A stretch of DNA of 55,033 nucleotides. Origin: an uncultured Actinomycetota bacterium. GTDB lineage: Bacteria > Actinomycetota > Nitriliruptoria > Euzebyales > Egibacteraceae. A program made the position numbers and the translations under genes. Where the stretch lies: the NCBI GenBank assembly GCA_964629825.1, contig CAZVUW010000009.1, positions 1-55,033 on the forward strand, written 5' to 3'. How positions within the stretch are numbered: the stretch's first letter is position 1; each line of letters starts with the position of its first letter. Shown here piece after piece: positions 38,068 through 55,033 of the stretch. A model generated the notes under the pieces. That model ran no database searches and was not told the DNA's origin. It worked only from the letters and a program-made list of their open reading frames with translations.

Positions 38068-38223
38068 ATGCTACTCGGTTACCTTGATCCCGGATCAGGC
38101 AGCATCATCGTTCAAGCTGCCTTGGGCGGAGCGGCAGGCCTAGCGGTGCTGTGGAAGCGCGTCCGCTACCGCGGTCGACCTACACCCGACCAGGAGTCAA
38201 AGCAGGAGACCCCCGAGGAGTAG
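38068..38223 (+). CDS. Small membrane protein (51 aa; MLLGYLDPGSGSIIVQAALGG...)
   Basis: AAGGAG (38056-38061) lies 6 nt before ATG 38068. It has one hydrophobic helix and then a charged tail, and sits just upstream of the kinase-like/methyltransferase gene. Confidence 0.5.
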   Translation: MLLGYLDPGSGSIIVQAALGGAAGLAVLWKRVRYRGRPTPDQESKQETPEE

Positions 38224-38247
38224 AGGCCTCCTGATCACCCCAGCCGA

Positions 38248-39645
38248 ATGACATCGGGCGTGGCAACCGGCTCCTTTCGCGATCCTGCGAGTCGGGTTCT
38301 CCTGGACGGCACGAGGGTTCTTCGTGTGCTCTCCCGCGAGGGCTACGAGGACTGGCTGGCGCTGAAGGATTCGCGGCTGCTTGCCGCCGCGCAGTCTGCG
38401 GGGACCCTCGTCGCAACCACCGACGCCTCCATCCCTGACGCTGCTCCGCGGGGGGATTGGGTCCACGCGCTCGAGCATGAGGCGATCCCCTTCATCTCGT
38501 ACCCCTACGAGTGGCCCTTCAGCATGCTGAAGGACGCAGCCCTGCTGCAGCTGGATCTCCTGCAGTCCGCCTTGGAGGAGGATCTGATCCTCAAGGACGC
38601 CAGCCCCTACAACGTCCAGTGGCGGGGTGCACGGCCGGTCTTCATCGACATCGGCTCGTTCGAGCGTCTGCGAGCGGGTGAGCCCTGGGCCGGTTACCGC
38701 CAGTTCTGCTCCCTGTTCCTCTTCCCGCTGATGCTGCGCGCGTACAAGGGGGTCCCGTACAGGACCTGGCTCCGCGGTGATCTGGAGGGGATATCGCCGC
38801 AGGAGATGCGCAGCCTCATGAGCCGGCGGGATCTGCTGCGCCCTGGAGTGGCGCTGCACGTGGCTCTGCAGGCCAAGGCCGATGCGCGCTACTCCGCGGG
38901 TGACGAGAACGTCCGCGAGCAGGTCCGCGCGGCGGGCTTCAGCAAGGACCTGATCCTGGCCAACGCGCGGAGGTTGCGGAAGCTCGTCGACTCCCTGAGC
39001 TGGCGCGCCGCGAGCTCGGAGTGGTCCGAGTACGCCACCGGCTGCGCCCACGTCGAGGGCGACCGCAACGTGAAGGAGAGGTTCGTCCGCCAAGTCCTGG
39101 CCACTCGCCGATGGCCGCTGGTCTGGGATCTCGGCGCCAACGACGGCTACTACTCCAGGCTTGCCGCCTCGCACGCAGACGCGGTGCTGGCGATCGATGG
39201 GGATGAGCTGGTGCTCGACCGCCTCTATCGCAGCTTGTCCGGCGAGGCCAAGGATCGGATCACGCCATTGGTGATCGACCTGGCCAACCCCTCGCCCGCG
39301 CAGGGCTGGGCCGGCCGGGAGCGTATGACCCTCGAGCAGCGAGGCCGCCCAGCCCTGACGCTCATGTTGGCGGTCATCCATCACCTTTCGATTGGACGCA
39401 ACATCCCGGTGGCCGACGTCGTGCGCTGGCTCGCCGAGCTCGGCGGTGAGGTGGTGCTGGAGTTTCCGCAGCCGGACGATCCGATGGTGCTCCGCCTGCG
39501 TCGCAACAAGCGCGACGAGGAGATCCATCCCGACTACAGCGAGCGTGCCCTGCGCGGTCTCCTCGCTGAGCACTTCGACATCCAGGCCGAGGAACGAACC
39601 TCTTCCGGCCACCGCCTGCTGCTGCACCTCACGCCGCGCTCCTGA
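38248..39645 (+). CDS. Fusion of an N-terminal protein-kinase-like fold domain and a C-terminal class I SAM-dependent methyltransferase
   Basis: The N-terminal part carries YPYEWPFSMLKDAALLQLDLL, LKDASPYNV (D-x4-N catalytic-loop-like) and VFIDIGSFE (DFG-like). The C-terminal part carries LVWDLGANDGYYS (SAM motif I, FkbM-like) and AIDGD. Confidence 0.65.
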   Translation: MTSGVATGSFRDPASRVLLDGTRVLRVLSREGYEDWLALKDSRLLAAAQSAGTLVATTDASIPDAAPRGDWVHALEHEAIPFISYPYEWPFSMLKDAALLQLDLLQSALEEDLILKDASPYNVQWRGARPVFIDIGSFERLRAGEPWAGYRQFCSLFLFPLMLRAYKGVPYRTWLRGDLEGISPQEMRSLMSRRDLLRPGVALHVALQAKADARYSAGDENVREQVRAAGFSKDLILANARRLRKLVDSLSWRAASSEWSEYATGCAHVEGDRNVKERFVRQVLATRRWPLVWDLGANDGYYSRLAASHADAVLAIDGDELVLDRLYRSLSGEAKDRITPLVIDLANPSPAQGWAGRERMTLEQRGRPALTLMLAVIHHLSIGRNIPVADVVRWLAELGGEVVLEFPQPDDPMVLRLRRNKRDEEIHPDYSERALRGLLAEHFDIQAEERTSSGHRLLLHLTPRS

Positions 39646-39704
39646 ACCCCGGGCGGCACCGCGCGGAAGGCCGATCGGCAGCCCCCGGCTGAGCTCCGCG
39701 ATGG

Positions 39705-39742: not shown

Positions 39743-39915
39743 CCGTCCAAGCGTCGAACCGTCCTCAAAACGACCAGGCGGTCTTGAAGGGGCACCCCGA
39801 CCGTGTAGGTTGCGCGTGCTCGCCTACGCGGAGGCGGGCTGCAGTAGCGGGCTGTAAGGACGGCGGGGGACGACAGACGGGCCTCGCCCTTGCACGGAGG
39901 CTCAAGTTGCCCAGG

Positions 39916-42900
39916 ATGGTCGCGCGCAGCACCCGTTCCCTGTCCCTGCTCCTCAGCCTACTCATGGTGAGCGTGCTGGTCGACCCGAGCCTGGCGGCGA
40001 CGGGGGAACGGGGGCGGACCTACACCACCGACGCGGACTTCGACGAAGGCTCGTCCGTCAACGTCGTCACCAGCGTCCCCGATCAGCTCCAGCTCGACGA
40101 CGAGGTGCGGGCGTTCGACTTCCTGTGGGTCGCGGTCTCGACCAAGGGCACGATCGTCAAGATCGACACCCGCACAGGCGAGGTGCTCGGCGAGTACCGC
40201 ACCGCCCCGCAGGGGCAGCCGACGGACCCGTCGCGCACGACCGTGGACAAGAACGGCAGCGTCTGGGCGACCAACCGGGCGGGCAACAGCGTCGTGCACG
40301 TGGGGCTGGTCGAGAACGGCCAGTGCGTCGACCGCAACGGCAACGGCGTCATCGACACCTCCACGGGTCTGGGCGACGTGCGCGCCTGGGACAACGCCGG
40401 CGGGGCGAACACGAACGGGGGCGTCTCGACCGCGCTGGACGAGTGCCTCCTCCACTACGTCCGGGTCTCCTCGTCAGGCACCCGGCACGTGTCTGTCACC
40501 GCCGACAACGACGTCTGGGTCAGCGGCACGGGCGGACGCCACTTTGATCTGATCGACGGCGCCAGCGGGGAGATCGTCCGCCGCGAGCAGTCGGTCGGCT
40601 ATGGCGGCTACGGCGGGCTCATCGACCCGAGCGGGGTCATCTGGTCGTCTCGGCCGCTGCTGCGCTGGGACACGGCCAACCCGCTGACCGGTCCCAACGG
40701 CGGGAACTGGCGCGGCTACTCGCATGACAGCTATGGCCTGTGCATCGACCCCGAGGGCAACGTCTGGAACACCGAGTACGGCAGCCGCATCCACAAGTTC
40801 GCGCCCGACGGCACGCTGATCGGCACCTACAACCACGGCGGCTCGCTGGCTCAGGGCTGCGTGGCCGACCGCGACGGCCACATCTGGGTCGCCCACTCCC
40901 TCAGCGGCAACACGGTCGGCCACCTGCGCAACGACGGCACCCACCTGGGCAACGTGACCGTCGGCAGCGGGCCGACCGGCGTCGCCGTCGACGGTGCCGG
41001 CAAGATCTGGGCCACGAACTACAGCAGCCGCACCGTCTCCCGGATCGACCCGGACGCCGGCCCGATCGGCACGGACGGCCAGACCCGGGTCGGCGCCGTC
41101 GACTTCACCAGCGTCGACCTGGGCGGCAACCTCTACAACTACAGCGACATGACCGGCAGCACGCTGGCCGGCGCGCCCGACACCGGCACCTGGTCGGTCG
41201 TCTACGACAGCGGTGTGGACGCGGCGCAGTGGGGCCGTGTCGCCTGGACCGCCCAGGTCCCGGGCGACGGATCGCTGACGGTGACCGCGGCCAGCAGCGA
41301 GAACGGCAGCACCTTCTCCGCGCCGGTCGACGCCACCAGCGGCGGCCTCATCGACGTGCCCGACGGGCGCTACCTGCGCGTCACCGTGTCCTTCAAGCGC
41401 TCCAGCGACGGCGACAGCCCGGTCCTCAACGACCTGACCGTCCGCACCGGCACGGCCCCGCTCGAGTGCGAGACCCAGCCGGGCGGCATCGCACCCTCCG
41501 ACGTCGCCTTCGTGCTCGACGAGTCCGGCTCGATGTCCTCGAACGACCCGCAGCGCATCCGCGTCAGCGCCAGCACGGCCTTCGTCGACCGCTTCGTGGA
41601 GGGCGACCGCGCCGCCGTCATCGGCTTCGAGTCCAGCGCACGGGTCATCCTCGGCCTGTCCTCGGACGTCGACGCGATCAAGGCGGCCCTCAACCAGACC
41701 CGCGCATCCGGCGGCACCGACATCTCCAGCGGCGTCCGCGCGGGCCTGGACGAGCTCGCCAAGGATGCCCAGCCGGGCCGCCCCCAGTTCCTGCTGCTCC
41801 TGTCCGACGGCGCCGGCAGCTACAGCCACACCCTGACCGACCGCGCCGCCGCCGAGGGCGTGACCATCTACACCGTCGGCCTGGGCCCGTCCGTGCCCGA
41901 GGCGCTGCTCACGGAGATCGCCGAGCGCACCGGCGGCCGCTACTTCCCGGCGGCCCGGGCCGACGAGCTGCCGGACCTGTTCCAGGAGATCCGGGACGAG
42001 ACGGAGATCATCCTGTGCGGCGGCCCGACCGCCGAGGCCGGCGGGCCCTACGCGGTGCCGGAGGGCGGCGCCGTGATCCTCTTCGGCTCGGCCGACCCGG
42101 GCGACGACACGCGCCCGCTGACCTTCGCCTGGGATCTCGACAGCGACGGCGACTTCGAGACCGACGGCCCGCTCGCCCGCTTCGACGCGACCGACCTCGA
42201 CGGACCCGCCGAGGTCGAGGTCGCGCTCCAGGTCTGCGACGCCGACGAGCTCTGCGACGTCGACACCGCCACGGTCGAGGTTCGCAACGTGCGGCCCGAG
42301 GTCGATGCCGGACCCGATCTCGTCGTCACGGTGGGCGACACCGCGCTGCTCGACGGGCGCTTCAGCGACCCTGCCGGGGACGACGACGCCCCCTACGAGA
42401 CGATCTGGACCCTCGACGGCGAGGAGACCGCCGGCACCGCCGACCACGGCGACCCCGTCCGCCGCAGCGTCTCCTTCGACAGCCCGCAGAGCCATCTGGC
42501 CGAGGTGACGGTCACCGACGCCGACGGGGCGACCGGCCGCGACACCGCGCGGGTGAGCGCCGTGGCCATCGATCCGGACTGCTCCGGTGCCGGACCGACC
42601 ATCGCGCAGCTGTGGCCACCGAACCACAAGCTCCACAACGTTGCGATCACCGGCGTCGAGGCGCCGGACGGTGCGGACGTCGCCATCGTCATCACCGGCA
42701 TCCGCCAGGACGAGCCCGTCAACAGCACCGGCGACGGGAACACCGCGCCGGACGCCTTCGGCGTGGGCACCTCGACCGCCAGCCTGCGCGCCGAGCGCGC
42801 CGGTCCGCAGGACAGCCGCTTCTATCACATCTTCTACGAGGCCCGGACGTCCGAGGGCGGCATGTGCGCCGGCTCGGTCAGCGTGATGGTGCCGCACGAC

Positions 42901-45900
42901 CGCTCCCCCAACGCGGTCCACGTCGACGGCGGTCCCATCTACGACTCCACCGCTGGCAGCGACCCCGAACCCGGCACGCCGGTCGCGCTGGACGGCCACC
43001 ACCGGGTCACCAACGGCGCGACCCTGACCGTCGACGCGCCCGGCGTGCTCGCCCCGCACCTCACCCCGGACTCGGAGGACGTCGTCGCCGAGCTGGTCGA
43101 GGGGCCCGATGCGGGCGAGCTCGACCTGCGCCCGGACGGCTCGTTCACCTACACCGCCCCCGACGCGCCGGGCGATGTGCGCTTCACCTACCGCGCCCGC
43201 TCGGGCGACCGGGTCTCGGCGACGGGCACGGTGACCATCCGGGTGACCGCCGCCACCGCGGCCCTGCACGCACCCGACCGCGAGCTGTGGACCAGCGAGG
43301 ACACGCCCGTCAGCGCGACCCTCACGGCCCGCGGCAGCGGCGCGGAGGACGCGGTGTTCGCCATCGTCGACGGCCCGGCCTCGGGGACGGTGGAGCTCGA
43401 CGGAGACGTCCTCACCTACAAGCCCGCGCGCGACTTCACCGGCGGGGACGAGCTCACCTACTCGGCGACGTCCGGGGGCGTCCAGTCCGTCGGAACCGTC
43501 CGTATGACGGTGCTGGCCTCCAACGACACCCCGGTCGCCGAGACCGTCGCGGCCGCCGTCCCCGAGGACGGCACGGCGCTGATCGACGTCCTCTCGGCGG
43601 CCTCCGACGCCGATGGCGACGCCCTCGAGGTCGTGGAGGTCACCGCCCCGGCCCACGGCACCGCTGAGGTCGTCGACGGGCAGATCCGCTACGAGCCCGA
43701 GGCCGACTACAACGGCCCCGACACCTTCCGCTACCGCGTGCAGGATCCCGACGGCGCCTTCGCCGCGGCCGCCGTGCTGGTCGATGTGACCGAGGAGAAC
43801 GACCCGCCGCTGGCCGCCGACCTCGACTACTCGACCTCCTGGGACGAAGCCCTGTCGATCCCGGTTGCCGAGGTCGTCGCAGCCGGCCGCCCGGGTCCGG
43901 CCGACGAGGAGGGCCAGGCGCTCACCCTGACCACCGTCACGGCGACCGCCGACACCAACGGGAGGGTGACCCTCGACGGCGACGTCATCACCTACACACC
44001 GGACAGCGACTTCAGCGGCCGCGCGAGCTTCCGCTACGAGCTCTGCGACGACGGCACGAGCGCCGGCGAGCCCGACCCGCGCTGCGCGCACGGCACGATC
44101 ACCGTCGACGTCGTCCGGACCAACCGTCCACCGGTCGCCCATGACGCCGCGGTGACAACGGCGGAGGACACCCCCGTCGAGATCACCCTGCGCGCCACCG
44201 ACGCCAACGACGACCCGCTGACCTATCGGATCGTCACGGGTCCTGCCCACGGGAACCTCACCGGCACGCCGCCGACGCTCACCTACACCCCCGCGACCGG
44301 GTTCAGCGGCACGGACACCTTCACGTTCGCCGCCCACGACGGGCAGGCCGAGAGCTCCCCGGCGACGGTCACCATCACCGTGACCGAGGTGAACTCGCCA
44401 CCGGTGCCCGCCCCCGACCACTTCGCGATCGACGCCGGTGAGATCCTCACCGTCCCTGCCGCCGACCTCACCGCCAACGACGTGCCAGGCCCGCCACATG
44501 AGGCGCACCAGAGCCTCACCGTCACGCGGCTGATCGCGACCTCGGACACGTTCGGCGCTTTGTCTCTGGCCGACGGTGTCGTGACCTACACGCCCGAGCC
44601 CGGCTACAGCGGCACGGCGAGCTTCCGCTACGAGGTCTGCGACGACGGCACCACCGCCGGTCAGCCCGACCCGCTGTGCGCCGAGGGCACCGTCACGGTG
44701 GACGTCGCCGTCATCAACACCCCGCCGACGGCGGCCCCCGTCGTGGCAAGCACCGACGAGGACACGCCGGTCGTGATCACCCTGACCGGCCGCGATGACG
44801 ACGGCGACGCGCTGACCTTCGCGATCGTCGAGGGGCCGCAGAACGGCGCCCTCGGAGCGCTTTCGGCGGTGATCTGCGAGCAGGACGGGAGCGCCTCCGT
44901 CTGCTCGGCCACCGTCACCTACACCCCCGACCCGGACGTTGCGACGATCGACGTCTTCCGCTTCGCGGTTCGGGACGGCCGCGCCACCGTGGAGGCGACC
45001 GCCTCGGTCTACATCGAGCCGGTCAACGACGCCCCGACCGCCGACGCCACCCCGAACCCGCTGGTCCTGGCCGAGGACACCCAGGCCGGCGTGACCCTCA
45101 CGGGGGCGGACATCGAGACGCCACCGGCGGCCCTGGTGGTCGAGATCACGGCGCTCCCCGACCGCGGAGAGCTGCGCCACGACGGGCGCGCCCTCGAGGT
45201 CGGCGACCGCATCACCGGCGTGCCCGTTGACGTCTCCTACGTACCCGACCCGGACGCGAACGGCTCCGACGGGTTCACCTTCCGCGTGCACGACGACGGA
45301 CAGGCCCTCAGCCCGCCGCTGCACGCCGAGCAGGCCGTGACCGTCAGCATCACCCCGGTGAACGACCCGCCGGTCCCCGGCACGTTCAGGGCCTCAGCCA
45401 CCCAGGGGCAGCCGCTGGAGATCCCGGCCGCCGACGTCGCCGCCACCGCCTCCCCCGGCCCCGCCGACGAGGCCGGGCAGGCCCTGGTGATCACGAACGT
45501 GCGCGCCGTTGACGACACGCACGGCACCGTGGTGCTCGCGGGCGGCGTCATCACCTACACGCCCGACGGCGACCACTCGGGCCCGGCGTCGTTCGCGTAC
45601 ACGATCTGCGACGACGGCACAACCGGCGGCCAGCCCGATCCCCGGTGCGCCGAGGGCGTCGTTTCCCTGACCGTCGCCGAAGAGGGCCCCGACCTCGCAC
45701 CGCCGATCGTCGAGGTCGAGGACGTGACCGTGACCGCGGGCACCACCGCGATCGTGACGGTGACCGCCACCGACAACCGCGGCGTCGCGTCCCTGGAGCT
45801 GACCGTGGACGGCACGTCCGTGCCGCTCGACGACGCCGGCCGCGCCCAGGTCCCAACCTCTTCGCCCGGTGTTCAGCAGCTCGTCGCGACCGCGACGGAC

Positions 45901-48900
45901 GCCGCCGGCAACGTCGGGACGGCGATGGGCAAGGTCGTGGCCCTCGGCTCGGATGACGGCGTCGCGCCGGCGGCTGCGATCACCGCGCCGATCGACGGCA
46001 AGGAGCTGAGCGAGCCGACAACGGTCGTCGGCACGGCGACCGACGCCCGCCTCAGCCACTGGCAGCTGACGGCGACGCCGGTGTCGCCGGCCGACTCCGC
46101 TCCGATCGTGCTCGCGGAGGGCACCGAGCCCATCGCTGACGGCGCCCTCGGCACCTTCGATCCGACGACCCTCACCGGCGGGCAGTACCGGCTCCGCCTT
46201 GACGTCTGGGACCTCGGTGGACGGGGAGCCCGCGCCGAGGTCGTGGTCATCGCCGACAACGAGACGCCCTACGGGCAGTTCTCGATGACATTCACGGACG
46301 CGGTCCTGCCCCTCGGCAACTTCCCCGTCACGGTGCAGCGCACCTACTCGTCGGGCAGCCGGGCGATCTCGGGCGACTTCGGCTACGGCTGGCGGCTGGG
46401 CCTCCAGTCGCTGAAGCTGGAGGTCGACCGCGAGCCGGGCGACGGCTGGCGGGCGGAGAACCGCGGCACGATCATCCCGAACTGGGTGCTGATCCCGACG
46501 AAGCCGCACACCGTCACGATCGTCGACGACAACCGCGACTCGATCATCTTCGAGTTCACGCCGACGTTCATCAGCCCGATCCTCCCGAACTACGCGACCG
46601 CCGCGTTCACGGAGCGGACCAACAAGGGCGCGACGCTGACGCCGCTGGACGCCACCGACCTGTTCTTCAGCGGCGACCAGCTCTACGGCTTCGACACCAT
46701 CGAGACCTACCACCCGCAGGCCTATCAGCTGACGCTCCGCGACGGCCGCCGGTACACCTTCCACCTGGAGCGCGGCCTGACGGAGTACCGCGACGCGAAC
46801 GGTGAGCGGCTGAGCATCACCGCGTCGGGGATCACGTCATCGCGCGGGCCCGGCGTCACCTTCGCCCGCGACAGCGAGGGCCGCATCACCAGCGTGACCA
46901 CGCCGGGCGGGCTCGTGACCCGCTACGGCTACGACGCCGCCGGCAACCTCGCCGAGGTCATCGACCCCGAGGGCAACCGGACCACCTTCGCCTACGACCG
47001 CCGGCACTTGCTGATCGGCGTGGTTGACGCGCTCGGTCGGGTGCCGATGCGCACCGAGTTCGATGAGAACGGCCGCATCGTCGCCATCGTCGACTCGAGC
47101 GGGCGCCGCACCGAGCTCTCCTCCGATCCCGACGCTCGAGAGGAGACGATCTCCGACCGGCTCGGGAACGTGACCGTCCGCAGCTACGACGAGGACGGCA
47201 ACGTCCTCAAGGAGATCCACCCGGACGGGGCGGTCGAGACCTTCACCTACGACGCCGACGGCAACCAGACCTCGCGCACCGACGGGCTGGGCCGCACCAC
47301 CACCTACACCTACGACCAGCGCGGCAACCGCACCAGCCAGACCGATGAGCTGGGCAACACGACCACCTACACCTACGACGAGGACGACAACCTCATCGCG
47401 ATGGTCGACCCGCTCGACGAGGTGACCACGTTCACCTACGACGGCAACGGCAACCGGACGTCGGTCACCTACCCCGACGGCACCACCGAGAGCTGGACGT
47501 ACGACAGCCGCGGCAACCTCCTCACCGAGACCGACGCAACCGGCGCCGTCACCCGCCACACCTACGACTCGCAGGGCCGGCGCATCTCGACCGTCCTGCC
47601 CGGAGGGGCCGAGCGCGTCACGACCTACGACGCCGACGGGCGCCGCGCGTCCCAGACCGGCCCGAGCGGCACCGAGACCTTCGGCTATGACGGCCTCGGC
47701 AACATCACGACCCACCACGATCCGCTCGGCGGCCAGACCCTGAACACCTACGACCCGCTGGGCCGGCGCACCGAGCAGGTCGACCCGCTCGGCGGCATCC
47801 GGACCAAGACCTACGACGAGCACGGCAACGTCGTGGCCGAGACCGACGCGACCGGCGCCGTCACCCGTCACACCTACGACGCCGAGGGCCGCAAGCTCTC
47901 GACCACGGACCCTGACGGCACCGTCCACTCCTTCACCTACGACCGCCGCGGCCGCGAGATCGCCCGCAGAGTCGACGGCGTGATCGTCGAGGAGCGGACC
48001 TACGACGCGGCCGGCCAGATCACCTCCATCACCGACGCCGCCGGTGCTGTCACCCGCTATGAGTACGACCGCGCCGGGCGGCTCGTGCGGACGATCTTCC
48101 CCGACGGGTCGGCAGAGGAGCTGACCCTGGACGGCGCCGGCAACGTGCTGGAGCGCACGACGCCGGACGGCACGACCACGTTCACCTACGACGAGCGGGG
48201 CCGGATGCGCTCGCGGACGGTGCCCGGCCGCGGCACGACCACCTACGACTACGACGCCGACGGCCGTCTCAAGGAGGAGATCGGACCCGACGGCCGCAAG
48301 ACCACCTACACGTACGGCGCCGACCACCGGCTCGCCTCGGTCACCGACGGGCTCGGGGGCGTCACCACGTTCAGCTACGACGGCGACGGCCGGCTGACGT
48401 CCGTGACCGACCCGCTCGGTCGCACAACGACCTACCAGCACGACGCCCGGGGCCACCTCACGGAGCGCTCCGTCGAGGGTCAGGTGCTCGAGCGCTACAC
48501 CGCGGACGCGATGGGGCGGATCCTGACCCGCACCGACGCGGACGGCCGTGTGACCAGCTACGAGCACGACGGTGAGGGCCACCTCGTCGCCATCGACCAC
48601 GCCGACGGGCGCACGACCCGCATCGACTACACCGACGGGGGGCGACGGGACACGGTCACGGATGCCCGCGGCGTCACCTCCTACGGCTACGACACGGCCG
48701 GACGGCTCGTCCAGGTCACCGCGCCCGAAGGCACGGTGTCCTACGCCTACCGACCGGACGGCAACCTGGCCAGCCGGACCGACCCGGGCGGCACGACCGC
48801 TTACGAGTACGACGACCTCGGCCGGCTGACGGCCGTCGTCGACCCGTCCGGCGGTCGCTACACGATCGGCTACGACAGCGCCGGCCGACCCAGCACGCTC

Positions 48901-50505
48901 ACGTACCCGAACGGCGTGATCTCGACCACGACCTTCGACGACGCGGGAGCCGCCGCGAGCCGGACCATCACGGGCTCCGGTGGCCAGGTGCTCGCCTCCT
49001 TCGGCGTCACCCGCGACGCCGGCGGCCGCCTCACCGGGGTCGAGGAGACCGGTCCCGGCCTGGGCGCACCGCGCTCCCGCGCTTACGCCTACGACGCCGC
49101 GGGCCGCCTCACCGGCGCGACGGTCACCCGTGACGGCACGGTCGTCACCGACGAGAGCTACACGCTCGACGCCTTCGGCAACCGCACGGCGGTCACCTCA
49201 GGCGGTACCACCCAGACCGCGACGTTCGACGCCCTCGACCGCATCACGACGCTCGGGGACACGACCTACACCCACGACGCCTCAGGACGCCGCATCCGGG
49301 CCGAGGGCCCCGATGGCGCCACGTCCTACGCCTATGACAGCGATCACCGGCTGATCCGGGTCGGCAAGCCCGACGGCACTGTGGTCGAGCACGCCTACGA
49401 CGTCGACGGCAACCGCGTTGCCACCACGGTCGCAGGCCAGCGCACCGAGTACGTGCTGGACATCGCGGCCGAGCTGCCACAGGTCGCCGCCGAGACCGAC
49501 GGTCGGGGCACCGTCACCGCGACCTACGTCTACATCGCGGGCCGCCTCGTCGCCATGCGGCGCGGCGGGGTGACCACCTACGTCCACGATGACCACGGCG
49601 GCAACATCCGCCTGCTCACGGACGCCACCGGCGCGGTCACCGACACCTTCGACTACGGGCCCTTCGGGACGCTCGAGAGCCGCACCGGCACGACCCCGCT
49701 GCCGTACGGCTACCGCGGGCAGCGCTACGACGAGTCAACCGGGCTGTACTACCTGCACGCCCGCTACTACGACCCGGTCTCGGCCCGCTTCCTGAGCCCG
49801 GACCCGCACCCGGGTGTGCTGCGGCGGCCGGCGTCGTTCAACCGCTACCTGTACGCCAACGGCGATCCCGTGAACATGTGGGATCCCAACGGCCAGATGG
49901 GCCTCGCCGTGGCGGTGGGCGGCTTCCCCGTCCAGGCCACGCTCGCCGGCATATCCGTGCCGTCGCTGGTCGGGGTCCTCGCCACCGTCTACGTCCTGCT
50001 GCTCATCTCCGGGGTGGTCGGGCCGGCTCTGGTCAGCACCTCCGGCTTGACGATCGGCCAGACGATCGCCAACAGCCAGGCTGCGCAGCGCAGGCTGGAG
50101 CTCGAGTGGGAGAAGCTCGCCGCGGCCATCGCCGCCGCGTCGGCGGCCGCGGCCTGCGGTGTGCCGCTGTTCCACTACACGAGCTACATGGGCGCGCGGG
50201 GCATCTTGGCCGATCAGGCGATCTTCGCCACCCCGACGTTCCGCTCCCCGTGGGGCACGCACCCGTCCGGGGCGTACGCGACCACGATCTGGCCGATCGG
50301 CCCGACGACCCGCTCCCAGCTCCAGGATCTCTACAAGATGGGGGACCGCAACTGGGACGTCTCCTGGTACGTCATGCTGTGCCACAACCAGAACCCGACG
50401 TTCATCCCGTCCGGCTATGGCCAGGAGTGGTACGCGCCGGCGCCGCCGGGTTGGCCCGTGCCGGTGCGCGTGTGGACGATCGGACCGAACCTGATGCTCC
50501 CGTGA
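39916..50505 (+). CDS. Giant secreted RHS-repeat polymorphic toxin (signal peptide, NHL/Vgb-like propeller, vWA, PKD-like, nine cadherin/Ig-like repeats, RHS cage, variable C-terminal toxin)
   Basis: The Sec signal is MVARSTRSLSLLLSLLMVSVLVDPSLAA. Propeller blades show D.(D/N)G.(V/I)W motifs. The vWA MIDAS is DESGS at 41518-41532. Dozens of YD repeats (TYTYD..GN, YDA.GR) span 46279-49896. The RHS core is PYGYRGQRYDESTGLYYLHARYYDPVSARFLSPDP ... NMWDPNGQ. The start could be further upstream (track 39784), but ATG 39916 gives a clean signal peptide. Confidence 0.9.
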   Translation: MVARSTRSLSLLLSLLMVSVLVDPSLAATGERGRTYTTDADFDEGSSVNVVTSVPDQLQLDDEVRAFDFLWVAVSTKGTIVKIDTRTGEVLGEYRTAPQGQPTDPSRTTVDKNGSVWATNRAGNSVVHVGLVENGQCVDRNGNGVIDTSTGLGDVRAWDNAGGANTNGGVSTALDECLLHYVRVSSSGTRHVSVTADNDVWVSGTGGRHFDLIDGASGEIVRREQSVGYGGYGGLIDPSGVIWSSRPLLRWDTANPLTGPNGGNWRGYSHDSYGLCIDPEGNVWNTEYGSRIHKFAPDGTLIGTYNHGGSLAQGCVADRDGHIWVAHSLSGNTVGHLRNDGTHLGNVTVGSGPTGVAVDGAGKIWATNYSSRTVSRIDPDAGPIGTDGQTRVGAVDFTSVDLGGNLYNYSDMTGSTLAGAPDTGTWSVVYDSGVDAAQWGRVAWTAQVPGDGSLTVTAASSENGSTFSAPVDATSGGLIDVPDGRYLRVTVSFKRSSDGDSPVLNDLTVRTGTAPLECETQPGGIAPSDVAFVLDESGSMSSNDPQRIRVSASTAFVDRFVEGDRAAVIGFESSARVILGLSSDVDAIKAALNQTRASGGTDISSGVRAGLDELAKDAQPGRPQFLLLLSDGAGSYSHTLTDRAAAEGVTIYTVGLGPSVPEALLTEIAERTGGRYFPAARADELPDLFQEIRDETEIILCGGPTAEAGGPYAVPEGGAVILFGSADPGDDTRPLTFAWDLDSDGDFETDGPLARFDATDLDGPAEVEVALQVCDADELCDVDTATVEVRNVRPEVDAGPDLVVTVGDTALLDGRFSDPAGDDDAPYETIWTLDGEETAGTADHGDPVRRSVSFDSPQSHLAEVTVTDADGATGRDTARVSAVAIDPDCSGAGPTIAQLWPPNHKLHNVAITGVEAPDGADVAIVITGIRQDEPVNSTGDGNTAPDAFGVGTSTASLRAERAGPQDSRFYHIFYEARTSEGGMCAGSVSVMVPHDRSPNAVHVDGGPIYDSTAGSDPEPGTPVALDGHHRVTNGATLTVDAPGVLAPHLTPDSEDVVAELVEGPDAGELDLRPDGSFTYTAPDAPGDVRFTYRARSGDRVSATGTVTIRVTAATAALHAPDRELWTSEDTPVSATLTARGSGAEDAVFAIVDGPASGTVELDGDVLTYKPARDFTGGDELTYSATSGGVQSVGTVRMTVLASNDTPVAETVAAAVPEDGTALIDVLSAASDADGDALEVVEVTAPAHGTAEVVDGQIRYEPEADYNGPDTFRYRVQDPDGAFAAAAVLVDVTEENDPPLAADLDYSTSWDEALSIPVAEVVAAGRPGPADEEGQALTLTTVTATADTNGRVTLDGDVITYTPDSDFSGRASFRYELCDDGTSAGEPDPRCAHGTITVDVVRTNRPPVAHDAAVTTAEDTPVEITLRATDANDDPLTYRIVTGPAHGNLTGTPPTLTYTPATGFSGTDTFTFAAHDGQAESSPATVTITVTEVNSPPVPAPDHFAIDAGEILTVPAADLTANDVPGPPHEAHQSLTVTRLIATSDTFGALSLADGVVTYTPEPGYSGTASFRYEVCDDGTTAGQPDPLCAEGTVTVDVAVINTPPTAAPVVASTDEDTPVVITLTGRDDDGDALTFAIVEGPQNGALGALSAVICEQDGSASVCSATVTYTPDPDVATIDVFRFAVRDGRATVEATASVYIEPVNDAPTADATPNPLVLAEDTQAGVTLTGADIETPPAALVVEITALPDRGELRHDGRALEVGDRITGVPVDVSYVPDPDANGSDGFTFRVHDDGQALSPPLHAEQAVTVSITPVNDPPVPGTFRASATQGQPLEIPAADVAATASPGPADEAGQALVITNVRAVDDTHGTVVLAGGVITYTPDGDHSGPASFAYTICDDGTTGGQPDPRCAEGVVSLTVAEEGPDLAPPIVEVEDVTVTAGTTAIVTVTATDNRGVASLELTVDGTSVPLDDAGRAQVPTSSPGVQQLVATATDAAGNVGTAMGKVVALGSDDGVAPAAAITAPIDGKELSEPTTVVGTATDARLSHWQLTATPVSPADSAPIVLAEGTEPIADGALGTFDPTTLTGGQYRLRLDVWDLGGRGARAEVVVIADNETPYGQFSMTFTDAVLPLGNFPVTVQRTYSSGSRAISGDFGYGWRLGLQSLKLEVDREPGDGWRAENRGTIIPNWVLIPTKPHTVTIVDDNRDSIIFEFTPTFISPILPNYATAAFTERTNKGATLTPLDATDLFFSGDQLYGFDTIETYHPQAYQLTLRDGRRYTFHLERGLTEYRDANGERLSITASGITSSRGPGVTFARDSEGRITSVTTPGGLVTRYGYDAAGNLAEVIDPEGNRTTFAYDRRHLLIGVVDALGRVPMRTEFDENGRIVAIVDSSGRRTELSSDPDAREETISDRLGNVTVRSYDEDGNVLKEIHPDGAVETFTYDADGNQTSRTDGLGRTTTYTYDQRGNRTSQTDELGNTTTYTYDEDDNLIAMVDPLDEVTTFTYDGNGNRTSVTYPDGTTESWTYDSRGNLLTETDATGAVTRHTYDSQGRRISTVLPGGAERVTTYDADGRRASQTGPSGTETFGYDGLGNITTHHDPLGGQTLNTYDPLGRRTEQVDPLGGIRTKTYDEHGNVVAETDATGAVTRHTYDAEGRKLSTTDPDGTVHSFTYDRRGREIARRVDGVIVEERTYDAAGQITSITDAAGAVTRYEYDRAGRLVRTIFPDGSAEELTLDGAGNVLERTTPDGTTTFTYDERGRMRSRTVPGRGTTTYDYDADGRLKEEIGPDGRKTTYTYGADHRLASVTDGLGGVTTFSYDGDGRLTSVTDPLGRTTTYQHDARGHLTERSVEGQVLERYTADAMGRILTRTDADGRVTSYEHDGEGHLVAIDHADGRTTRIDYTDGGRRDTVTDARGVTSYGYDTAGRLVQVTAPEGTVSYAYRPDGNLASRTDPGGTTAYEYDDLGRLTAVVDPSGGRYTIGYDSAGRPSTLTYPNGVISTTTFDDAGAAASRTITGSGGQVLASFGVTRDAGGRLTGVEETGPGLGAPRSRAYAYDAAGRLTGATVTRDGTVVTDESYTLDAFGNRTAVTSGGTTQTATFDALDRITTLGDTTYTHDASGRRIRAEGPDGATSYAYDSDHRLIRVGKPDGTVVEHAYDVDGNRVATTVAGQRTEYVLDIAAELPQVAAETDGRGTVTATYVYIAGRLVAMRRGGVTTYVHDDHGGNIRLLTDATGAVTDTFDYGPFGTLESRTGTTPLPYGYRGQRYDESTGLYYLHARYYDPVSARFLSPDPHPGVLRRPASFNRYLYANGDPVNMWDPNGQMGLAVAVGGFPVQATLAGISVPSLVGVLATVYVLLLISGVVGPALVSTSGLTIGQTIANSQAAQRRLELEWEKLAAAIAAASAAAACGVPLFHYTSYMGARGILADQAIFATPTFRSPWGTHPSGAYATTIWPIGPTTRSQLQDLYKMGDRNWDVSWYVMLCHNQNPTFIPSGYGQEWYAPAPPGWPVPVRVWTIGPNLMLP

Positions 50506-51575
50506 GGCTCGAGCGCTCGGGCTCGCTCCCCCGCATCGGGGGGGTCACCGGTGCGCTGTCCGTCGGCGAGCACGTCGTCGTGACGTGCTCGCGCGGGACC
50601 GAGCGCTGGGCCGTCGGCCTGCGCCGCGACGGCGCCGGCTGGGCGCAGGCCTGGTCGCACGACCTGGTCGGCGACGCCTCCTACCCGTGGAGGGGCCACG
50701 GCATCTGGCTGGACCGCGGCGGGGCCGTCGGCCTGCCCGGCGGCCGGGTGGCCCTGGTCGGTGGCCGTGAGCGCCTGGTCGTGACCGCGGACGGCCGGGT
50801 CGAGACCCGTGCCGAGGGCGTGGCCGCGAGCGCTCCGCCCGCGCTGGTCGACGGCCTGCTGCTCATCCCGGAGCGCGCCGAGCTCGCCGCCTACGACCCG
50901 GACGACCTGACCGAGCGCTGGCGGCGCCCCACCCCGTGGGCCGCGCTGGTCTGCACGTCAGCGGTCGGCGACGTGGTGGGGATCAGCCACCACGACCGCG
51001 ACCCGGCCGAGAGCCACCTGTGGTGGTACGGGGCCGGCGCCACCGCCGCGCTGGGCTTCGAGGCGCTGTGGCATGCGCCGCTGCCCGTGCCGCTGCCCCT
51101 CGACGGGGCCGCGGTCGCCGCGGGACGCTCGGCCGCCGTAGTGGCCGAGGGCAGCTCGGCGGCGACGGTGGTGACGGCCGTCGGACCGGAGGGCCAGGAG
51201 CTCTGGCGGATTCCACGCGGCGCGCCGGCCTTCCCCCAGGCGCCGCGTCCGGCGCTGACGGGGCAGCTCCTTCCCGGCGACGGAGTGGTCTGGTGCGCCG
51301 TCGCCGAGCCGGCAGTGCTGGCCATCGACCCGGTGGACGGCGCCGTGCGCGCCGACGTGCCCCTGCCGGCCGACGCCACGGCGATGGCGCTGACCGGCGA
51401 CGCGCTGTGGGTGGGCACCGCCGACGGCGAGGTGCTCCAGATCGAGGACGCCGAGGTCGTCGCCCGCGCCGTCTTCGACCCCGGCGGTGCCGAGCGGCTG
51501 TCCCTGCTGCTACCGCTCGGCCCGGGGCTGCTCGGGATCGGCTCGCTCGGCTCCCTTGTCGAGATCAGCGCCTGA
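50502..51575 (+). CDS. Cytoplasmic beta-propeller-like (PQQ/BamB-type repeat) protein; candidate cognate immunity protein
   Basis: GTG 50502 overlaps the toxin stop (GTGA). There is no signal peptide. Repeated strand-turn motifs are LVVTADGRVE, LAAYDPDDLTERWRR, GQELWRIP, VLAIDPVDGAVRADV and ALWVGTADGEVLQI. I trimmed the 565-aa track ORF. Confidence 0.65.
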   Translation: MRLERSGSLPRIGGVTGALSVGEHVVVTCSRGTERWAVGLRRDGAGWAQAWSHDLVGDASYPWRGHGIWLDRGGAVGLPGGRVALVGGRERLVVTADGRVETRAEGVAASAPPALVDGLLLIPERAELAAYDPDDLTERWRRPTPWAALVCTSAVGDVVGISHHDRDPAESHLWWYGAGATAALGFEALWHAPLPVPLPLDGAAVAAGRSAAVVAEGSSAATVVTAVGPEGQELWRIPRGAPAFPQAPRPALTGQLLPGDGVVWCAVAEPAVLAIDPVDGAVRADVPLPADATAMALTGDALWVGTADGEVLQIEDAEVVARAVFDPGGAERLSLLLPLGPGLLGIGSLGSLVEISA

Positions 51576-51602
51576 CCCCGCCCTGGGCAGCCATCCCGAG
51601 GG

Positions 51603-53660
51603 TCAGCTGGCGGGCACGGCGGCGGCCAGGCGGTCCTCGACCGGGTTGGTCACCGCGCCGCCTCCTCCGACGATCCGCGGGCGGGCGCCGCGCGGGAGCA
51701 CGTCGCGCAGGAACGAGACCGTGCCGGTCACGGCGGCGGGCTCACGCCCGGGCGCCAGGATGAGGATGCCGTTGGTGGCCGCGGCGGCGGGCCCGGCGGC
51801 CAGCGCGTCCGGCCAGTCCTGACCGGTGGCGATCCAGGTGCTGGCGGGCTCGGCGCCGTCGGCGATCGCTCGCCGCGCGACCTCGACAGAGGTCGAGTAG
51901 CGCGTGTTCCCGGAGACCCGCTCGACGTTGCCGCTGCCGCCGACGGCGGAGGCGATCTGGCGCTGGACCGCGCTGGAGACTGCCCCGGTTCCGCCGACGA
52001 TCGTCGCGCTGCGAGCGCGCAGCTCGGTCAGCGCTGCCCCGGTGCCCGGCGGGACGACATCGCGGGTGACCAGCAGGATCGGGCGCTGCTGGCGGGCCGC
52101 CAGCGCGGACACCGAGACGGCGTCCGGCCAGCCCCGCGCCGGGTTCGACGACGCGCCCTCGACCACGTAGACGTCGCGTCCGCCGACCTCTGCCGCGATC
52201 CGCCGCGCGGTCTCGAAGCGGTCCGAGCCGGACAGCCGACGCACCTGCTGGACCGACGGCCGCGCCCGGAGCTCCTGGATGACACGGTTGCTGACGGCCG
52301 CCTCGCCACCGAGGACCACGACCTCCCGGACGCCGAGGCGGTCGATCTCGGCGGCCACCGCCGAGTCGAGGCGGTCGCGCAGGGTCAGCAGCAGCGGCGC
52401 GCCCAGCTTCTGCGCCAGGGGCGCCCCGGCGAGGGCATCGGGATAGGCGTCGGCGCGGGCGATGAGCGCCACCCGGCTGCTGCCGCGGGCATGGACCTCG
52501 CTGCTGAGAGCGACCGACGTGCCCATACGGGTCGAGCCCGAGACGCGTTCGACCCTGGCGCGGTGGCCGTAGGCAAGGGCGTGCCCGGCCGTTGGGGCGA
52601 AGCCGCTGCACCCGCTGATCGCGCTGTAGCGGGGATCCGACCCGAACCGGTTCCCGCCCCCGTCCACGATCCCGCTCGGCGCCGGACGAGTGCTGAGCGG
52701 CAGCGTGTTGAAGATGAACCTGGCCGCCCACCACGCGACGTTGTCACGCGCGACGACCGTGGAGCCCCTGACCCCGTGCCCGCGCAGGTTGCCGTACTCG
52801 GACGGCTTGGAGGTGACCTTGCCGAAGATGTTGCGCTCGATCACGACGTCGTGGACGTCGTGCTCGACCAGGAGGTTCTGACCGGCGTCGAACATGGTGT
52901 TGTAGCGGACGGTCACGTTGCCGGCCGAGGGCGACGTCGAGGTCGCGCCGCTGCCCAGCTTCAGGTTGGTGCCGTTGGGCGCGCGGAACAGCAGGTTGCG
53001 CTCGATCAGCCCCGGCCCGGAGCCGACGCCGCTCTGCACGTAGATGTTGTGGTTGCGCTCGGTCGTGCTGCTGGTCGCACGGGTGTCGTAGACGCAGTTG
53101 CCGGTGACCGCCCAGTCCCGCGGCACACCGGACTCGGTGGACACGCCGACGTACACGCCGGCGTCGGCATGGGCGCCCGACACGCGGTTGTTCGCGAAGA
53201 CCCAGCCCCGACCGCCCATCAGCTTGACCAGGGGCTCCTTGGAGCTGCCGTTGGGCGGCCAGCGGATGTCGAAGCCCTCGAAGGTCCACCAGCTGGCGCT
53301 GCGGATGTGCCACTGCCCGATCACGACCGGCCGCTCCCCCGGCCAGCCGGCGACGCGGATCCGAGCCGACGGCGAGGTGCGCCGGCTGTCGTAGATGACG
53401 CTCGTCAGGTTCTCGGTGTAGGTGCCGGCTCGCACCAGCAGCGTCTGGCCGGGCTGCACCTGTCGCAGGCCGTGGCCGAGCGTGCGCCAGGGGCGCTGCT
53501 CGGTGCCGGGGTTGCCGTCGTCGCCGTTCGGTGCGACGACTCGGGTCGCCTGCCCCGGCTGGGCGTGGGCGGCCGGCACGCCGACGTCGGTCAGGGCGAT
53601 GAGAACGGCCGCGATGAGCAGCAGAAGGCGGAAGCCGCGGGACTGCACGGAGCTGTACAT
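51603..53660 (-). CDS. Secreted right-handed beta-helix protein with three C-terminal CWB2 cell-wall-binding repeats
   Basis: The signal peptide is FRLLLLIAAVLIALTDVGVPAAHA. The beta-helix N-cap is VAPNGDDGNPGTEQRPWRTLGHGL ... LLVRAGTY. The three CWB2 units are RVSGSTRMGTSVALS...YPDALAGAPLA, RLSGSDRFETARRIA...WPDAVSVSALA and RVSGNTRYSTSVEVA...WPDALAAGPAA. I trimmed the track ORF to ATG 53660. Confidence 0.8.
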   Translation of the reverse strand: MYSSVQSRGFRLLLLIAAVLIALTDVGVPAAHAQPGQATRVVAPNGDDGNPGTEQRPWRTLGHGLRQVQPGQTLLVRAGTYTENLTSVIYDSRRTSPSARIRVAGWPGERPVVIGQWHIRSASWWTFEGFDIRWPPNGSSKEPLVKLMGGRGWVFANNRVSGAHADAGVYVGVSTESGVPRDWAVTGNCVYDTRATSSTTERNHNIYVQSGVGSGPGLIERNLLFRAPNGTNLKLGSGATSTSPSAGNVTVRYNTMFDAGQNLLVEHDVHDVVIERNIFGKVTSKPSEYGNLRGHGVRGSTVVARDNVAWWAARFIFNTLPLSTRPAPSGIVDGGGNRFGSDPRYSAISGCSGFAPTAGHALAYGHRARVERVSGSTRMGTSVALSSEVHARGSSRVALIARADAYPDALAGAPLAQKLGAPLLLTLRDRLDSAVAAEIDRLGVREVVVLGGEAAVSNRVIQELRARPSVQQVRRLSGSDRFETARRIAAEVGGRDVYVVEGASSNPARGWPDAVSVSALAARQQRPILLVTRDVVPPGTGAALTELRARSATIVGGTGAVSSAVQRQIASAVGGSGNVERVSGNTRYSTSVEVARRAIADGAEPASTWIATGQDWPDALAAGPAAAATNGILILAPGREPAAVTGTVSFLRDVLPRGARPRIVGGGGAVTNPVEDRLAAAVPAS

Positions 53661-53727
53661 GGAGACCTCGTCACAAACCGGACGCCTTGGGTCTGCGGCC
53701 TCCCCATGGCCATGGGGCCGCAAACCG

Positions 53728-54066
53728 TCAGGGCGCGCCAGACTGCCGACGGCTGCTCCTGAGGGCAAGGCGCAGCGCCGCGGCGGCGATCGCCGACGTG
53801 ACGATCGCCGCCAGCCACAGCGAGGGCCCGCGCTCCCCCACGCCCCAGCCGGTCATCCACCACAGCAGCAGGGCGACCGCTGCGGCGGCGGCTGCGACCA
53901 GGAGCAGACCCAGCCTGCGAAGGCGCTCGTCGGCGCCGATCGCCACCGCCGCACCCACGGCTCCGAGCCACACCGGCGCCGCGAAGTAGGTGCCCATGGC
54001 GCCACGGACCAGGAAGCCGATCGCGAGCCCGGCCAGGAGCACCCCCAGGGCTACGACGCTTTTCAT
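53728..54066 (-). CDS. Small hydrophobic membrane protein (about 4 TM segments)
   Basis: ATGA overlap with the upstream GT2 gene. The sequence is hydrophobic and Ala/Leu/Gly-rich. The function is unknown. Confidence 0.5.
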   Translation of the reverse strand: MKSVVALGVLLAGLAIGFLVRGAMGTYFAAPVWLGAVGAAVAIGADERLRRLGLLLVAAAAAAVALLLWWMTGWGVGERGPSLWLAAIVTSAIAAAALRLALRSSRRQSGAP

Positions 54067-54986
54067 CGTCCCCCGGTCAGGTAGCCCCAGCCCCAGGCCA
54101 GGTGCATCGTGAGCAGGGCGAGCAGCGTGCGAGCGCGCTGGCCGGCGGGGGCGCGCGCCGCGCCGAGCGCGACGGCGGCGGTGTAGGAGGCCGGCACGGC
54201 CAGCGACAGGCCGCGCGTCGGCCGGGCGGCCGCCAGCGCCGCCAAATTGGCGACGAGCATCAGCGGTGCCGCTAGCTGCCGCGCCCGGATGGAGCTCGGA
54301 TGGCGGCGGTGCACCTCGCGCTTCCAGCGGCCGTAGTCGCGGTACTGGCGGGCGAGGGTGGCCAGGGAGCCGCGCGGCCGGTAGGCGACGCGCAGCTCGG
54401 GTGAGAACCAGACCATGCCCCCGCTGGCTCGCAGGCGGATGTTGAGCTCGTAGTCCTGGTTGCGGAGCAGCGACTCGTCGAAGCCTCCGACGCGCTCCAG
54501 GGCCGCGCGGCGGAACACCCCGAGATAGACCGTGTCCACCGGCCCGGGGCTCCCCGCGCCCCGGTAGGCGGCGCCGCCGCTGCCGAGCGGTGAGGCCATG
54601 GCCGCGGCGACCGCGCGCTCGAACGGGGTCGTCCCCACCGGGTCCTGGATGCCGCCGACGTTGTCTGCGCCGGTGCAGCCGAGCAGCTCGACGGCACGCC
54701 GCAGGTAGCCGTGCGGGAGGACGGCGTGGGCGTCAACGCGCGCCACGACGTCACCGGTCGAGGCCTCGATCGCCCGGTTCAGAGCCGCCGGCGTGGTTCC
54801 GCTCAGGTTGTCGACCCGGCGCACCCGCGGATCGGCGGCCGCCACCTCGTCGACCAGCGCGACCGTCCCGTCCTCAGAGGGACCGACCGCCACGACCACC
54901 TCGAGCTCGCCGGGGTACTTCTGCGCCTGCACGGCGGCGAGAGCCTCGGCGATTGTCGCGGCGCTGTTGCGCGCCGGCATTACCAC
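54063..54986 (-). CDS. Glycosyltransferase family 2 with C-terminal membrane segments (ExoA-like)
   Basis: Motifs seen: VVMPARNSAATIAEAL, VVVAVGPSEDGT, VDAHAVLPHGY, GGAAYRG and NQDYELNIRL. The frame stays open upstream to the window edge (..PRVSVVMPARN), so the true start may be GTG 54986 or outside the window. Confidence 0.75.
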   Translation of the reverse strand: MVMPARNSAATIAEALAAVQAQKYPGELEVVVAVGPSEDGTVALVDEVAAADPRVRRVDNLSGTTPAALNRAIEASTGDVVARVDAHAVLPHGYLRRAVELLGCTGADNVGGIQDPVGTTPFERAVAAAMASPLGSGGAAYRGAGSPGPVDTVYLGVFRRAALERVGGFDESLLRNQDYELNIRLRASGGMVWFSPELRVAYRPRGSLATLARQYRDYGRWKREVHRRHPSSIRARQLAAPLMLVANLAALAAARPTRGLSLAVPASYTAAVALGAARAPAGQRARTLLALLTMHLAWGWGYLTGGR

Positions 54987-55033
54987 CGAGACGCGCGGCC
55001 AGACGCCGCCCGGCCACGGACCCGGCGGCGTCG

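Follow-up and report, generated by a model that had tools for sequence, protein, structure and literature searches.

How does the C-terminal tip of a secreted RHS protein reach the inside of a target cell, and what would it do there? We know of no model for tip delivery by RHS proteins that are not fired by a type VI secretion system (T6SS). More generally, both the exit of the RHS tip from its shell and its passage across the target membrane have been stated to be unresolved (bioRxiv 10.1101/2025.10.28.685041). The question is raised here by a stretch of 55,033 nucleotides from an uncultured Actinomycetota bacterium of the Egibacteraceae (contig CAZVUW010000009.1, positions 1 to 55,033, forward strand; the whole stretch is called the window below), which encodes a giant RHS/YD-shell protein and, overlapping its stop codon, a beta-propeller. 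Overall, we consider it somewhat probable that the last 202 residues of the RHS protein are a cleaved payload in which a membrane-inserting leader precedes an H-Y-[EQ] enzyme of the ADP-ribosyltransferase (ART) fold, with the propeller acting as the immunity protein.

The tip and its ART-like core

The features on which the argument turns are the following.

39907..50505, + strand: giant secreted RHS/YD-shell polymorphic toxin gene; the longest open reading frame (ORF) runs from 39784 and the likely start is TTG at 39907
49654..49896, + strand: RHS repeat-associated core domain (TIGR03696; NCBIfam, 75.7 bits), residues 219-299 of the translation of window positions 49000-50502, ending ...YLYANGDPVNMWDPNGQ
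49897..50076, + strand: charge-free hydrophobic leader (tip residues 1-60), with a predicted helix at residues 21-38 and Gly39 at 50011-50013
50053..50151, + strand: predicted long N-terminal helix of the toxin domain (tip residues 53-85; LELEWEKLAAAIAAASAAAA), inside the family profile
50161..50502, + strand: predicted ART-fold catalytic core (tip residues 89-202), with a proposed H-Y-E triad of H93 (50173-50175), Y127 (50275-50277) and E177 (50425-50427)
50502..50505, + strand: GTGA overlap, the GTG start of the propeller gene lying over the TGA stop of the toxin gene
50502..51575, + strand: BamB/PQQ-like beta-propeller of 357 amino acids (aa) without a signal peptide; candidate immunity protein

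The sequence-only reading had placed the beginning of the tip after the motif NMWDPNGQ, and this boundary was exact: TIGR03696 ends at base 49896, directly after the motif, and leaves a tip of 202 aa (49897-50502) before the stop codon at 50503-50505. As judged from its sequence, ...YLYANGDPVNMWDPNGQ is the expected autoproteolysis boundary, and the motif context around the putative cleavage site is YYDP...SPDP...DPNGQ. Behind the leader and the long helix lies a compact alpha/beta module of ~115 aa. A search of 5.8 billion clustered proteins returned only five close homologues of the tip, in which C87, G88, H93-Y94-T95, T121-H122-P123, G125-A126-Y127, T129 and E177 are invariant; the same tip architecture with the same invariant residues in independent metagenomic proteins is more than chance would produce.

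To widen the family, a profile was built from the window tip and these five relatives and run exhaustively against 1.84 billion representative proteins at E<=1e-3. It retrieved 142 representative proteins (72 at E<=1e-10), and the domain ended no more than 10 residues from the C-terminus in 116 of 145 cases. A Pfam scan that covered 139 members gave these matches.

RolB_RolC (PF02027): 53 of 139 members, best E 1.7e-8
Tox-ART-HYD1 (PF15633): 14 of 139 members, best E 1.9e-18 (matches at E<=0.01)
RHS_repeat: 19 of 139 members, best E 1.1e-104
PARP: 1 of 139 members, E 0.0099

Four members that match the family profile at E 1e-20 to 1e-22 also exceed the RolB_RolC gathering score of 23 bits over the same region (P0011, 34.8 bits; P0015, 30.9; P0012, 25.9; P0013, 24.2). 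The close relatives P0002 and P0008 reach 11.9 and 15.6 bits against Tox-ART-HYD1, under its gathering score of 25 bits, in alignments that lay LFHYT...GAYAT, the pattern picked out in the sequence-only reading, on profile positions 1-40. A HYD1-like ART had been proposed from the letters of the tip, and the part of this claim that finds support is an ART fold related to Tox-ART-HYD1, transitively, through the 14 matching members; the family is, however, no farther from RolB/6b than from HYD1, and the partner gene does not encode the HYD1 immunity protein Imm-My6CBD. Likewise, the Ala-rich segment before the core, earlier taken for a helical linker, is indeed a predicted helix (residues 53-85), but the toxin domain profile includes it as a conserved element, so that it is no mere linker, and in relatives it corresponds to about positions 56-78 of RolB_RolC.

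Structure prediction led to the same fold. AlphaFold2 (AF2) modelled residues 61-202 with a mean predicted local distance difference test score (pLDDT) of 89.7 and a predicted template modelling score (pTM) of 0.84, while a second model that included the leader and used a 42-sequence alignment had a pLDDT of 85.3 and a pTM of 0.77; the core exceeded 90. With both models, the ranked Foldseek lists consisted almost purely of ART folds from more than eight independent families, headed by Agrobacterium 6b (3AQ3; E 0.06-0.14, probability 0.87-0.93, template modelling (TM) score 0.33-0.51, root-mean-square deviation 5.5-6.6) and continuing with PARP1/2/10/12/14, Tpt1, DarT, Salmonella Rhs1 TreTu, ScARP, Scabin and CC0527. 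Against viral models, Foldseek returned mostly unnamed proteins. By these matches the predicted fold is the split-sheet ART fold, and the module that had been read to start at 50161 is laid out as proposed, with VPLFHYT as strand 1, GAYAT as a later strand and EWYAP as a strand that starts with Glu. The structure comparison named with the earlier claim came out in its favour as to the dominance of ART folds and the His and Tyr on the expected strands, and short of it as to the statistics, every E-value being at least 0.06. Because these E-values are weak, the fold call draws on the consistency of the matches and on transitive homology.

Residue conservation was counted over 102 near-full-length family members.

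H93: H in 99, Y in 3; on predicted strand 90-95 (strand 1)
Y94: Y in all 102
T95: T in 84, S in 13
Y127: Y in 99, F in 3; on predicted strand 125-129 (the GAYAT strand)
Position 177: E in 53, Q in 27, others in 22; first residue of predicted strand 177-181, followed by an aromatic residue

Of the polar positions of the family, the His of FHYT and the Tyr of GAYAT are conserved best, and in the model H93, Y127 and E177 are placed on the strands as in an H-Y-[EDQ] ART. A conserved basic residue could not be identified with any certainty: at position 122 the window has H, and 32 of the 102 members have R. The ART assignment is reached from sequence and from structure alike, and we conclude that the module belongs, as a divergent member lying beneath both Pfam models, to the 6b/RolB - Tox-ART-HYD1 assemblage of ART-fold toxins. 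The tip is very likely an ART-fold toxin that uses nicotinamide adenine dinucleotide (NAD+), and we lean slightly towards a transferase rather than an NADase. Membership of the Tne5 family was considered and rejected on account of different residues and a different closest structure.

Enzymes that remove ADP-ribose are encoded within ~1 kb of two family toxins: a NADAR domain gene (L001:1812-2258, - strand, 148.8 bits), which adjoins the toxin-propeller pair, and an ADP-ribosylglycohydrolase (ARH) gene near the P0014 toxin (L006:19846-20616, - strand, 126.3 bits). These neighbours might serve as a second line of detoxification, or they might give a clue to the type of substrate.

The hydrophobic leader

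Ahead of the enzyme lies a hydrophobic segment. The first 60 residues of the tip contain no D, E, K or R, and the 68-residue charge-free run at the leader is the sole run of at least 35 residues in the 3573-aa protein. The mean Kyte-Doolittle (KD) hydropathy over 19 residues reaches its maximum of 2.38 at residues 19-37; elsewhere in the protein, values of at least 1.6 were found only at the signal peptide and at one position, tip residue 74, in the Ala-rich helix. About 55 hydrophobic residues, enough for two membrane helices, had been noted from the sequence. The hydrophobicity was confirmed, with 60 charge-free residues, and two helices would be possible by length (~40 residues), but AlphaFold on the leader (42-sequence alignment) gave one helix at residues 21-38 with a pLDDT of ~70, and not two clear helices.

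The leader belongs to the family and not to this protein only. In the 78 members with an upstream DPxG, the distance from DPxG to strand 1 is mostly 74-99 aa, most commonly 80-90, and the gap holds a moderately to strongly hydrophobic segment of ~45 aa followed by a charged or Ala-rich helix. A leader motif, S-I-A-[IV]-P-S-[FL]...V-x-L-L-x-x-G, recurs in the family, and Gly39 is conserved in at least 90% of 42 aligned complete tips. Among members with at least 100 aa upstream, a hydrophobic leader was present in 63 of the 72 with an RHS end motif versus 8 of the 18 without (Fisher p = 2.9e-4). It can be missing on other scaffolds, as in P0005, which has a signal peptide and another domain, and where PASTA-like linkers are found (P0023, P0027 and P0033). 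The full-length members P0014, P0108 and P0128 carry signal peptides and adhesin-type domains and no PAAR, as does the window protein; P0094 has adhesin-type domains, no obvious N-terminal signal peptide and no PAAR.

A leader-only hidden Markov model (HMM) was built from 38 tips and tested in a small local database. It found seven held-out family members at E<=1e-3, and all 28 unrelated RHS tips, a small sample drawn via the RHS core, stayed at or below 1.4 bits. A leader-only profile run against the 5.8-billion-protein set found nothing at E<=1, being too short and hydrophobic for a database of that size. Five of the 28 unrelated tips (P0147, P0154, P0164, P0169 and P0172) bear a hydrophobic, Gly-rich lead of their own. 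These leads begin right after DPxG, are Gly/Ala-rich and show no detectable homology to the leader of the ART family, and the C-terminal sequences behind them do not match the ART profile. Hydrophobic leads on RHS tips are therefore recurrent and probably convergent, and the ART family has its own co-inherited version.

The idea of a delivery role for the leader draws on the physical character of the segment, its fixed place at the N-terminus of the payload and its association with RHS proteins that lack a prePAAR transmembrane domain. That it is a device for membrane insertion or translocation is a serious candidate, to which we give slightly less than an even chance. As a separate observation, the PASTA-like segments of P0023, P0027 and P0033 stand in place of the leader, directly before the ART domain, and Pfam PASTA was found in five members; they suggest an alternative, peptidoglycan-related delivery context for the same toxin.

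The beta-propeller gene and the genomic setting

The GTG start of the propeller gene at 50502 is also used by independent gene callers, and the 4-bp GTGA overlap, as read from the sequence, suggests translational coupling to the toxin gene. A homologous propeller (357-375 aa, including that of the window) with a 4-bp start/stop overlap was found in five of five close loci, namely the window and L001-L004. The four relatives are 358-375 aa long, with 24-30% identity, and their genes lie as follows.

L001:719-1795, propeller gene
L002:1028-2149, propeller gene
L003:864-1946, propeller gene
L004:844-1971, propeller gene

One of these four loci comes from an uncultured Lyngbya metagenome-assembled genome (MAG), which is cyanobacterial, and its propeller passes the PQQ_2 cut-off with 37.6 bits. 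A search of GTDB with the close-homologue alignment gave a single locus. The propeller family profile matched BamB at E 1.4e-8 and also PQQ dehydrogenase propellers. Because of its position and coupling, the propeller is a candidate for immunity, and it is probably the immunity protein of the toxin.

The toxin gene itself is one uninterrupted frame of 3573 codons (39784..50505, + strand). Gene callers chose TTG at 39907 as its start in six identical metagenome contigs, giving a product of 3532 aa, and GGAGG lies seven bases 5' of this codon. The 41-codon extension upstream of it (39784-39906; …CACSPTRRRAAVAGCKDGGGRQ…) does not look like coding sequence, which makes it probable that the true protein starts directly ahead of the signal peptide. 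From there, the order of domains is signal peptide, SGL/NHL-type propeller, VWA, PKD, about nine Big_9/cadherin-like domains, DUF6531, RHS repeats, RHS-associated core and toxin tip. Pfam scans gave RHS_repeat at 166.6 bits in 12 stretches, TEN_YD-shell at 56.2 bits, and DUF6531; by sequence, the RHS repeats, the YD shell and the RHS-associated core closing with a DPxG motif place the protein in the RHS/YD-repeat class. No Pfam match to PAAR, VgrG or LXG was found in the scanned stretches (39784-46500 and 48397-50502) or in the scanned family members. Since a signal peptide and adhesin domains are present and none of these three was detected, we regard the protein as a Sec-type surface RHS protein and not as a type VI effector. 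A T6SS prePAAR/PAAR Rhs effector was accordingly rejected: the protein opens with a signal peptide, after which come propeller, VWA and Ig-like domains, and Pfam showed no PAAR or VgrG in residues 1-2239.

Two further candidates were discarded. Recent horizontal acquisition of the tip was rejected because its GC content at third codon positions (GC3) equals that of the RHS core (0.96 vs 0.95), so that its composition gives no hint of a recent graft, and a defence-system role was dropped because a PADLOC scan of the tip gave no match. The window has ~72% GC, and Rfam and tRNA scans of it found nothing. GC3 is 0.81-0.87 in the genes 5' of the RHS gene (28000-39700) versus 0.92-0.95 in the RHS gene and the longer genes after it (four in all; 39900-55000), and 0.88 in a short ORF at 53728-54066; expression level, an island boundary or wrongly chosen frames are possible causes of this step. 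The product of the convergent neighbour at 51603-53768 (- strand) is secreted and combines a right-handed beta-helix (DUF1565/Pel9A-like) with three CWB2 cell-wall-binding repeats, which fits a monoderm, probably actinobacterial host.

Proposed mechanism, alternatives and known systems

The 202-aa tip would be the payload of a Sec-exported, surface-displayed RHS polymorphic toxin, with its three parts forming a cassette inherited as a unit. Autoproteolysis between DPNGQ and the M that follows it would leave the tip inside the YD shell. On delivery, the charge-free leader would insert into the cytoplasmic membrane of the target and help to draw the attached domain through to the cytoplasmic side or to hold it there, doing in cis the job of the N-terminal prePAAR transmembrane domain of T6SS Rhs effectors, which is missing from this protein. 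The helix and core would act as an H-Y-[EQ] ART-fold enzyme of the 6b/RolB - Tox-ART-HYD1 clade, binding NAD+ via H93 and Y127 and, with E177, transferring ADP-ribose to an essential target or, failing that, hydrolysing NAD+. In the producer, the coupled cytoplasmic beta-propeller would neutralise the toxin.

Several results weigh against this account. The window tip and its 114-aa and 142-aa modules had no significant match in Pfam, NCBIfam or PADLOC, so that a direct Pfam hit to Tox-ART-HYD1 or another ART, which the sequence-only reading had proposed to look for, failed to appear even at E<=10; apart from FxsA and TarH noise in the hydrophobic part, direct scans of the tip matched nothing. 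No relative was found when PDB sequences were searched with profiles of the close-homologue and the broad family alignments, and no Foldseek match reached E<=1e-3 (every E at least 0.06, with TM scores of 0.33-0.51 to 6b). The third catalytic position is not strictly conserved (27 Q and 22 others beside the 53 E, out of 102), and 6b itself uses Y-T-Y-Y rather than H-Y-E. The confidence of AF2 in the leader is moderate only (pLDDT 41-75). Beta-propellers were noted as not found among immunity proteins (Zhang et al. 2012, PMC3482391), so that an immunity role of the propeller is read from its position only. Distant family members have small unrelated ORFs downstream instead, none with a Pfam match, which is the usual turnover of immunity genes. 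Finally, the NADAR and ARH genes each occur in one instance only and on the strand opposite to the toxin.

As to the enzyme, an ART-fold NAD(P)+ glycohydrolase would kill by cofactor depletion and not by modifying a macromolecule. This also speaks against our account, as two recent ART-fold tips from RHS/YD shells deplete NAD+, Tne5 (PMC13285283) and the C-terminal domain of the Methylosarcina TLP (MfTLP; PMC13018210); moreover, the core is small (~115 aa) with no obvious target-recognition subdomain, and position 177 alternates between E and Q. Tne5, however, is of another lineage, with SPN NADase as its closest structure and Lys/Glu residues rather than H-Y-E, the top Foldseek matches are transferases (6b, DarT, TreTu, ScARP and PARPs among them) with no NADase structures, and the enzymes removing ADP-ribose (NADAR, ARH) near two family members suit a transferase better. 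We consider depletion unlikely, though it deserves to be kept in mind. Much less probable still is that the ART resemblance is spurious or that the domain is a catalytically dead binding module. The missing direct profile match and the weak Foldseek statistics would agree with this, and the closest solved relative, 6b, acts partly by protein binding with non-canonical residues, but HMMER links the tip to Pfam-positive members at E 1e-20 in a library of 1.8 billion proteins, the H, Y and E/Q are strongly conserved, and a dedicated, translationally coupled partner gene is conserved alongside.

The leader is open to two other interpretations. It might do nothing in the target cell, either packing on the inner wall of the RHS shell, with the payload kept unfolded and retained, or anchoring the cleaved tip to the producer. 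Its tie to RHS-linked members (63/72 vs 8/18), the unrelated hydrophobic leads on other RHS tips and the review text according to which RHS tips are kept unfolded inside the shell would suit such a role; yet around two thirds of the 28 sampled RHS tips have no hydrophobic lead, which argues that encapsulation needs none, and 60 residues with zero charges and a KD of 2.4 are more membrane-like than shell-lining, so that we find an idle leader rather improbable. It might, on the other hand, be a membrane-permeabilising or pore-forming toxin itself, making the tip bifunctional or the ART module secondary. Purely hydrophobic, permeabilising RHS tips are known (Tse5-CT, PMC9637101, PMC10684867; the BiTLP C-terminal domain, PMC13018210), and the segment is charge-free and rich in Gly, Ala, Ser and Thr, with one conserved Gly. 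It is, however, short (~40-60 aa) with one predicted helix, a conserved enzyme domain that keeps its catalytic residues always follows at a fixed spacing, and the frequent absence of the leader on non-RHS scaffolds (P0005, P0023, P0027, P0033) fits a delivery accessory better; a toxic leader therefore seems to us distinctly improbable.

Returning to the leader as a delivery element, a family-wide leader of fixed geometry on a small enzyme is a compact candidate for a translocation element within the payload and lends itself to direct testing, and the leads on unrelated RHS tips raise the possibility of a general class of such leaders. The joint claim that the leader (45-60 residues) is a self-contained membrane-translocation device in the cleaved payload and that the toxin is neutralised by a BamB-like beta-propeller is put forward tentatively and may well not hold in full. 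If it did, some RHS toxins would cross membranes by means of an in-cis leader and not of an N-terminal prePAAR domain or a hijacked target protein, and the BamB-like propeller would be a fold not previously reported for a polymorphic-toxin immunity protein. Should the leader be merely packing material, the locus would encode an ordinary, though previously unclassified, RHS ART toxin-immunity pair. An unannotated group of RHS tips is now linked to the ART clade of the 6b/RolB plant oncogenes, the reach of Tox-ART-HYD1-like toxins is extended, and attention is drawn to a beta-propeller in the immunity role, for which a comprehensive survey had recorded none (Zhang et al. 2012).

Compared with known systems, the core resembles Tox-ART-HYD1 (PF15633) in being a small C-terminal ART-fold toxin of the H-Y-[ED] clade on RHS proteins, with the h-H-Y-T and G-x-Y-x-T motifs. 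HYD1 toxins have conserved H, [RK], [FY] and [DE] residues and the immunity protein Imm-My6CBD (Zhang et al. 2012, PMC3482391); H93, Y127 and E177 of the window may correspond to three of these residues, whereas the window sequence is under the detection of the model (E<=10), its partner is a propeller and not Imm-My6CBD, and its third residue is E/Q instead of D/E. Agrobacterium 6b/RolB_RolC (PF02027; 3AQ2/3AQ3) is the top structural match of both models, though with weak statistics, and 53 of 139 members match its Pfam model, several of them above the cut-off and with the N-terminal helix included. Unlike 6b, a T-DNA-encoded plant effector that needs host ARF, the window toxin is RHS-borne and of interbacterial type, bears H-Y-E and is paired with a candidate immunity gene, and its sequence is beneath PF02027 detection.

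With Tre23, TreTu, TreX, Tne5 and MfTLP the window toxin shares an ART-fold payload that is cleaved and encapsulated by an RHS/YD shell, with an immunity gene directly downstream, features that in the window are predicted, and by analogy it would work like the RHS ART toxins Tre23, TreTu and TreX. Most of those five are T6SS effectors, with any transmembrane helices at the N-terminus (prePAAR); they have small immunity proteins that are not propellers, and none is described with a hydrophobic leader directly before the ART domain in the cleaved tip. Type VI Rhs effectors are thought to use the prePAAR transmembrane domain for crossing membranes. A hydrophobic segment tied to RHS delivery is common to the window toxin, prePAAR domains, Tse5-CT and BiTLP, the last of which is also a Sec-type surface YD-shell protein. 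In Tse5 and BiTLP, however, the hydrophobic region is the toxin, while here a short leader precedes an enzyme with fixed spacing and family-specific conservation; in prePAAR effectors, the hydrophobic region is at the opposite end of the protein and Eag chaperones are required.

The arrangement had been called undescribed for a Gram-positive RHS toxin. In the literature searched, which was not exhaustive, we found no paper describing the combination of leader, ART domain and propeller, but the leader is family-wide, including the cyanobacterial MAG, and is thus unique neither to this protein nor to Gram-positives. Hydrophobic and ART-fold C-terminal domains in YD shells have each been described separately (PMC13018210), and analogous, non-homologous leads occur on other RHS tips. 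What the locus adds to the known systems, each ingredient having its precedents, is an unclassified ART subfamily that bridges HYD1 and RolB/6b, a payload-borne leader at fixed spacing and a propeller as immunity candidate.

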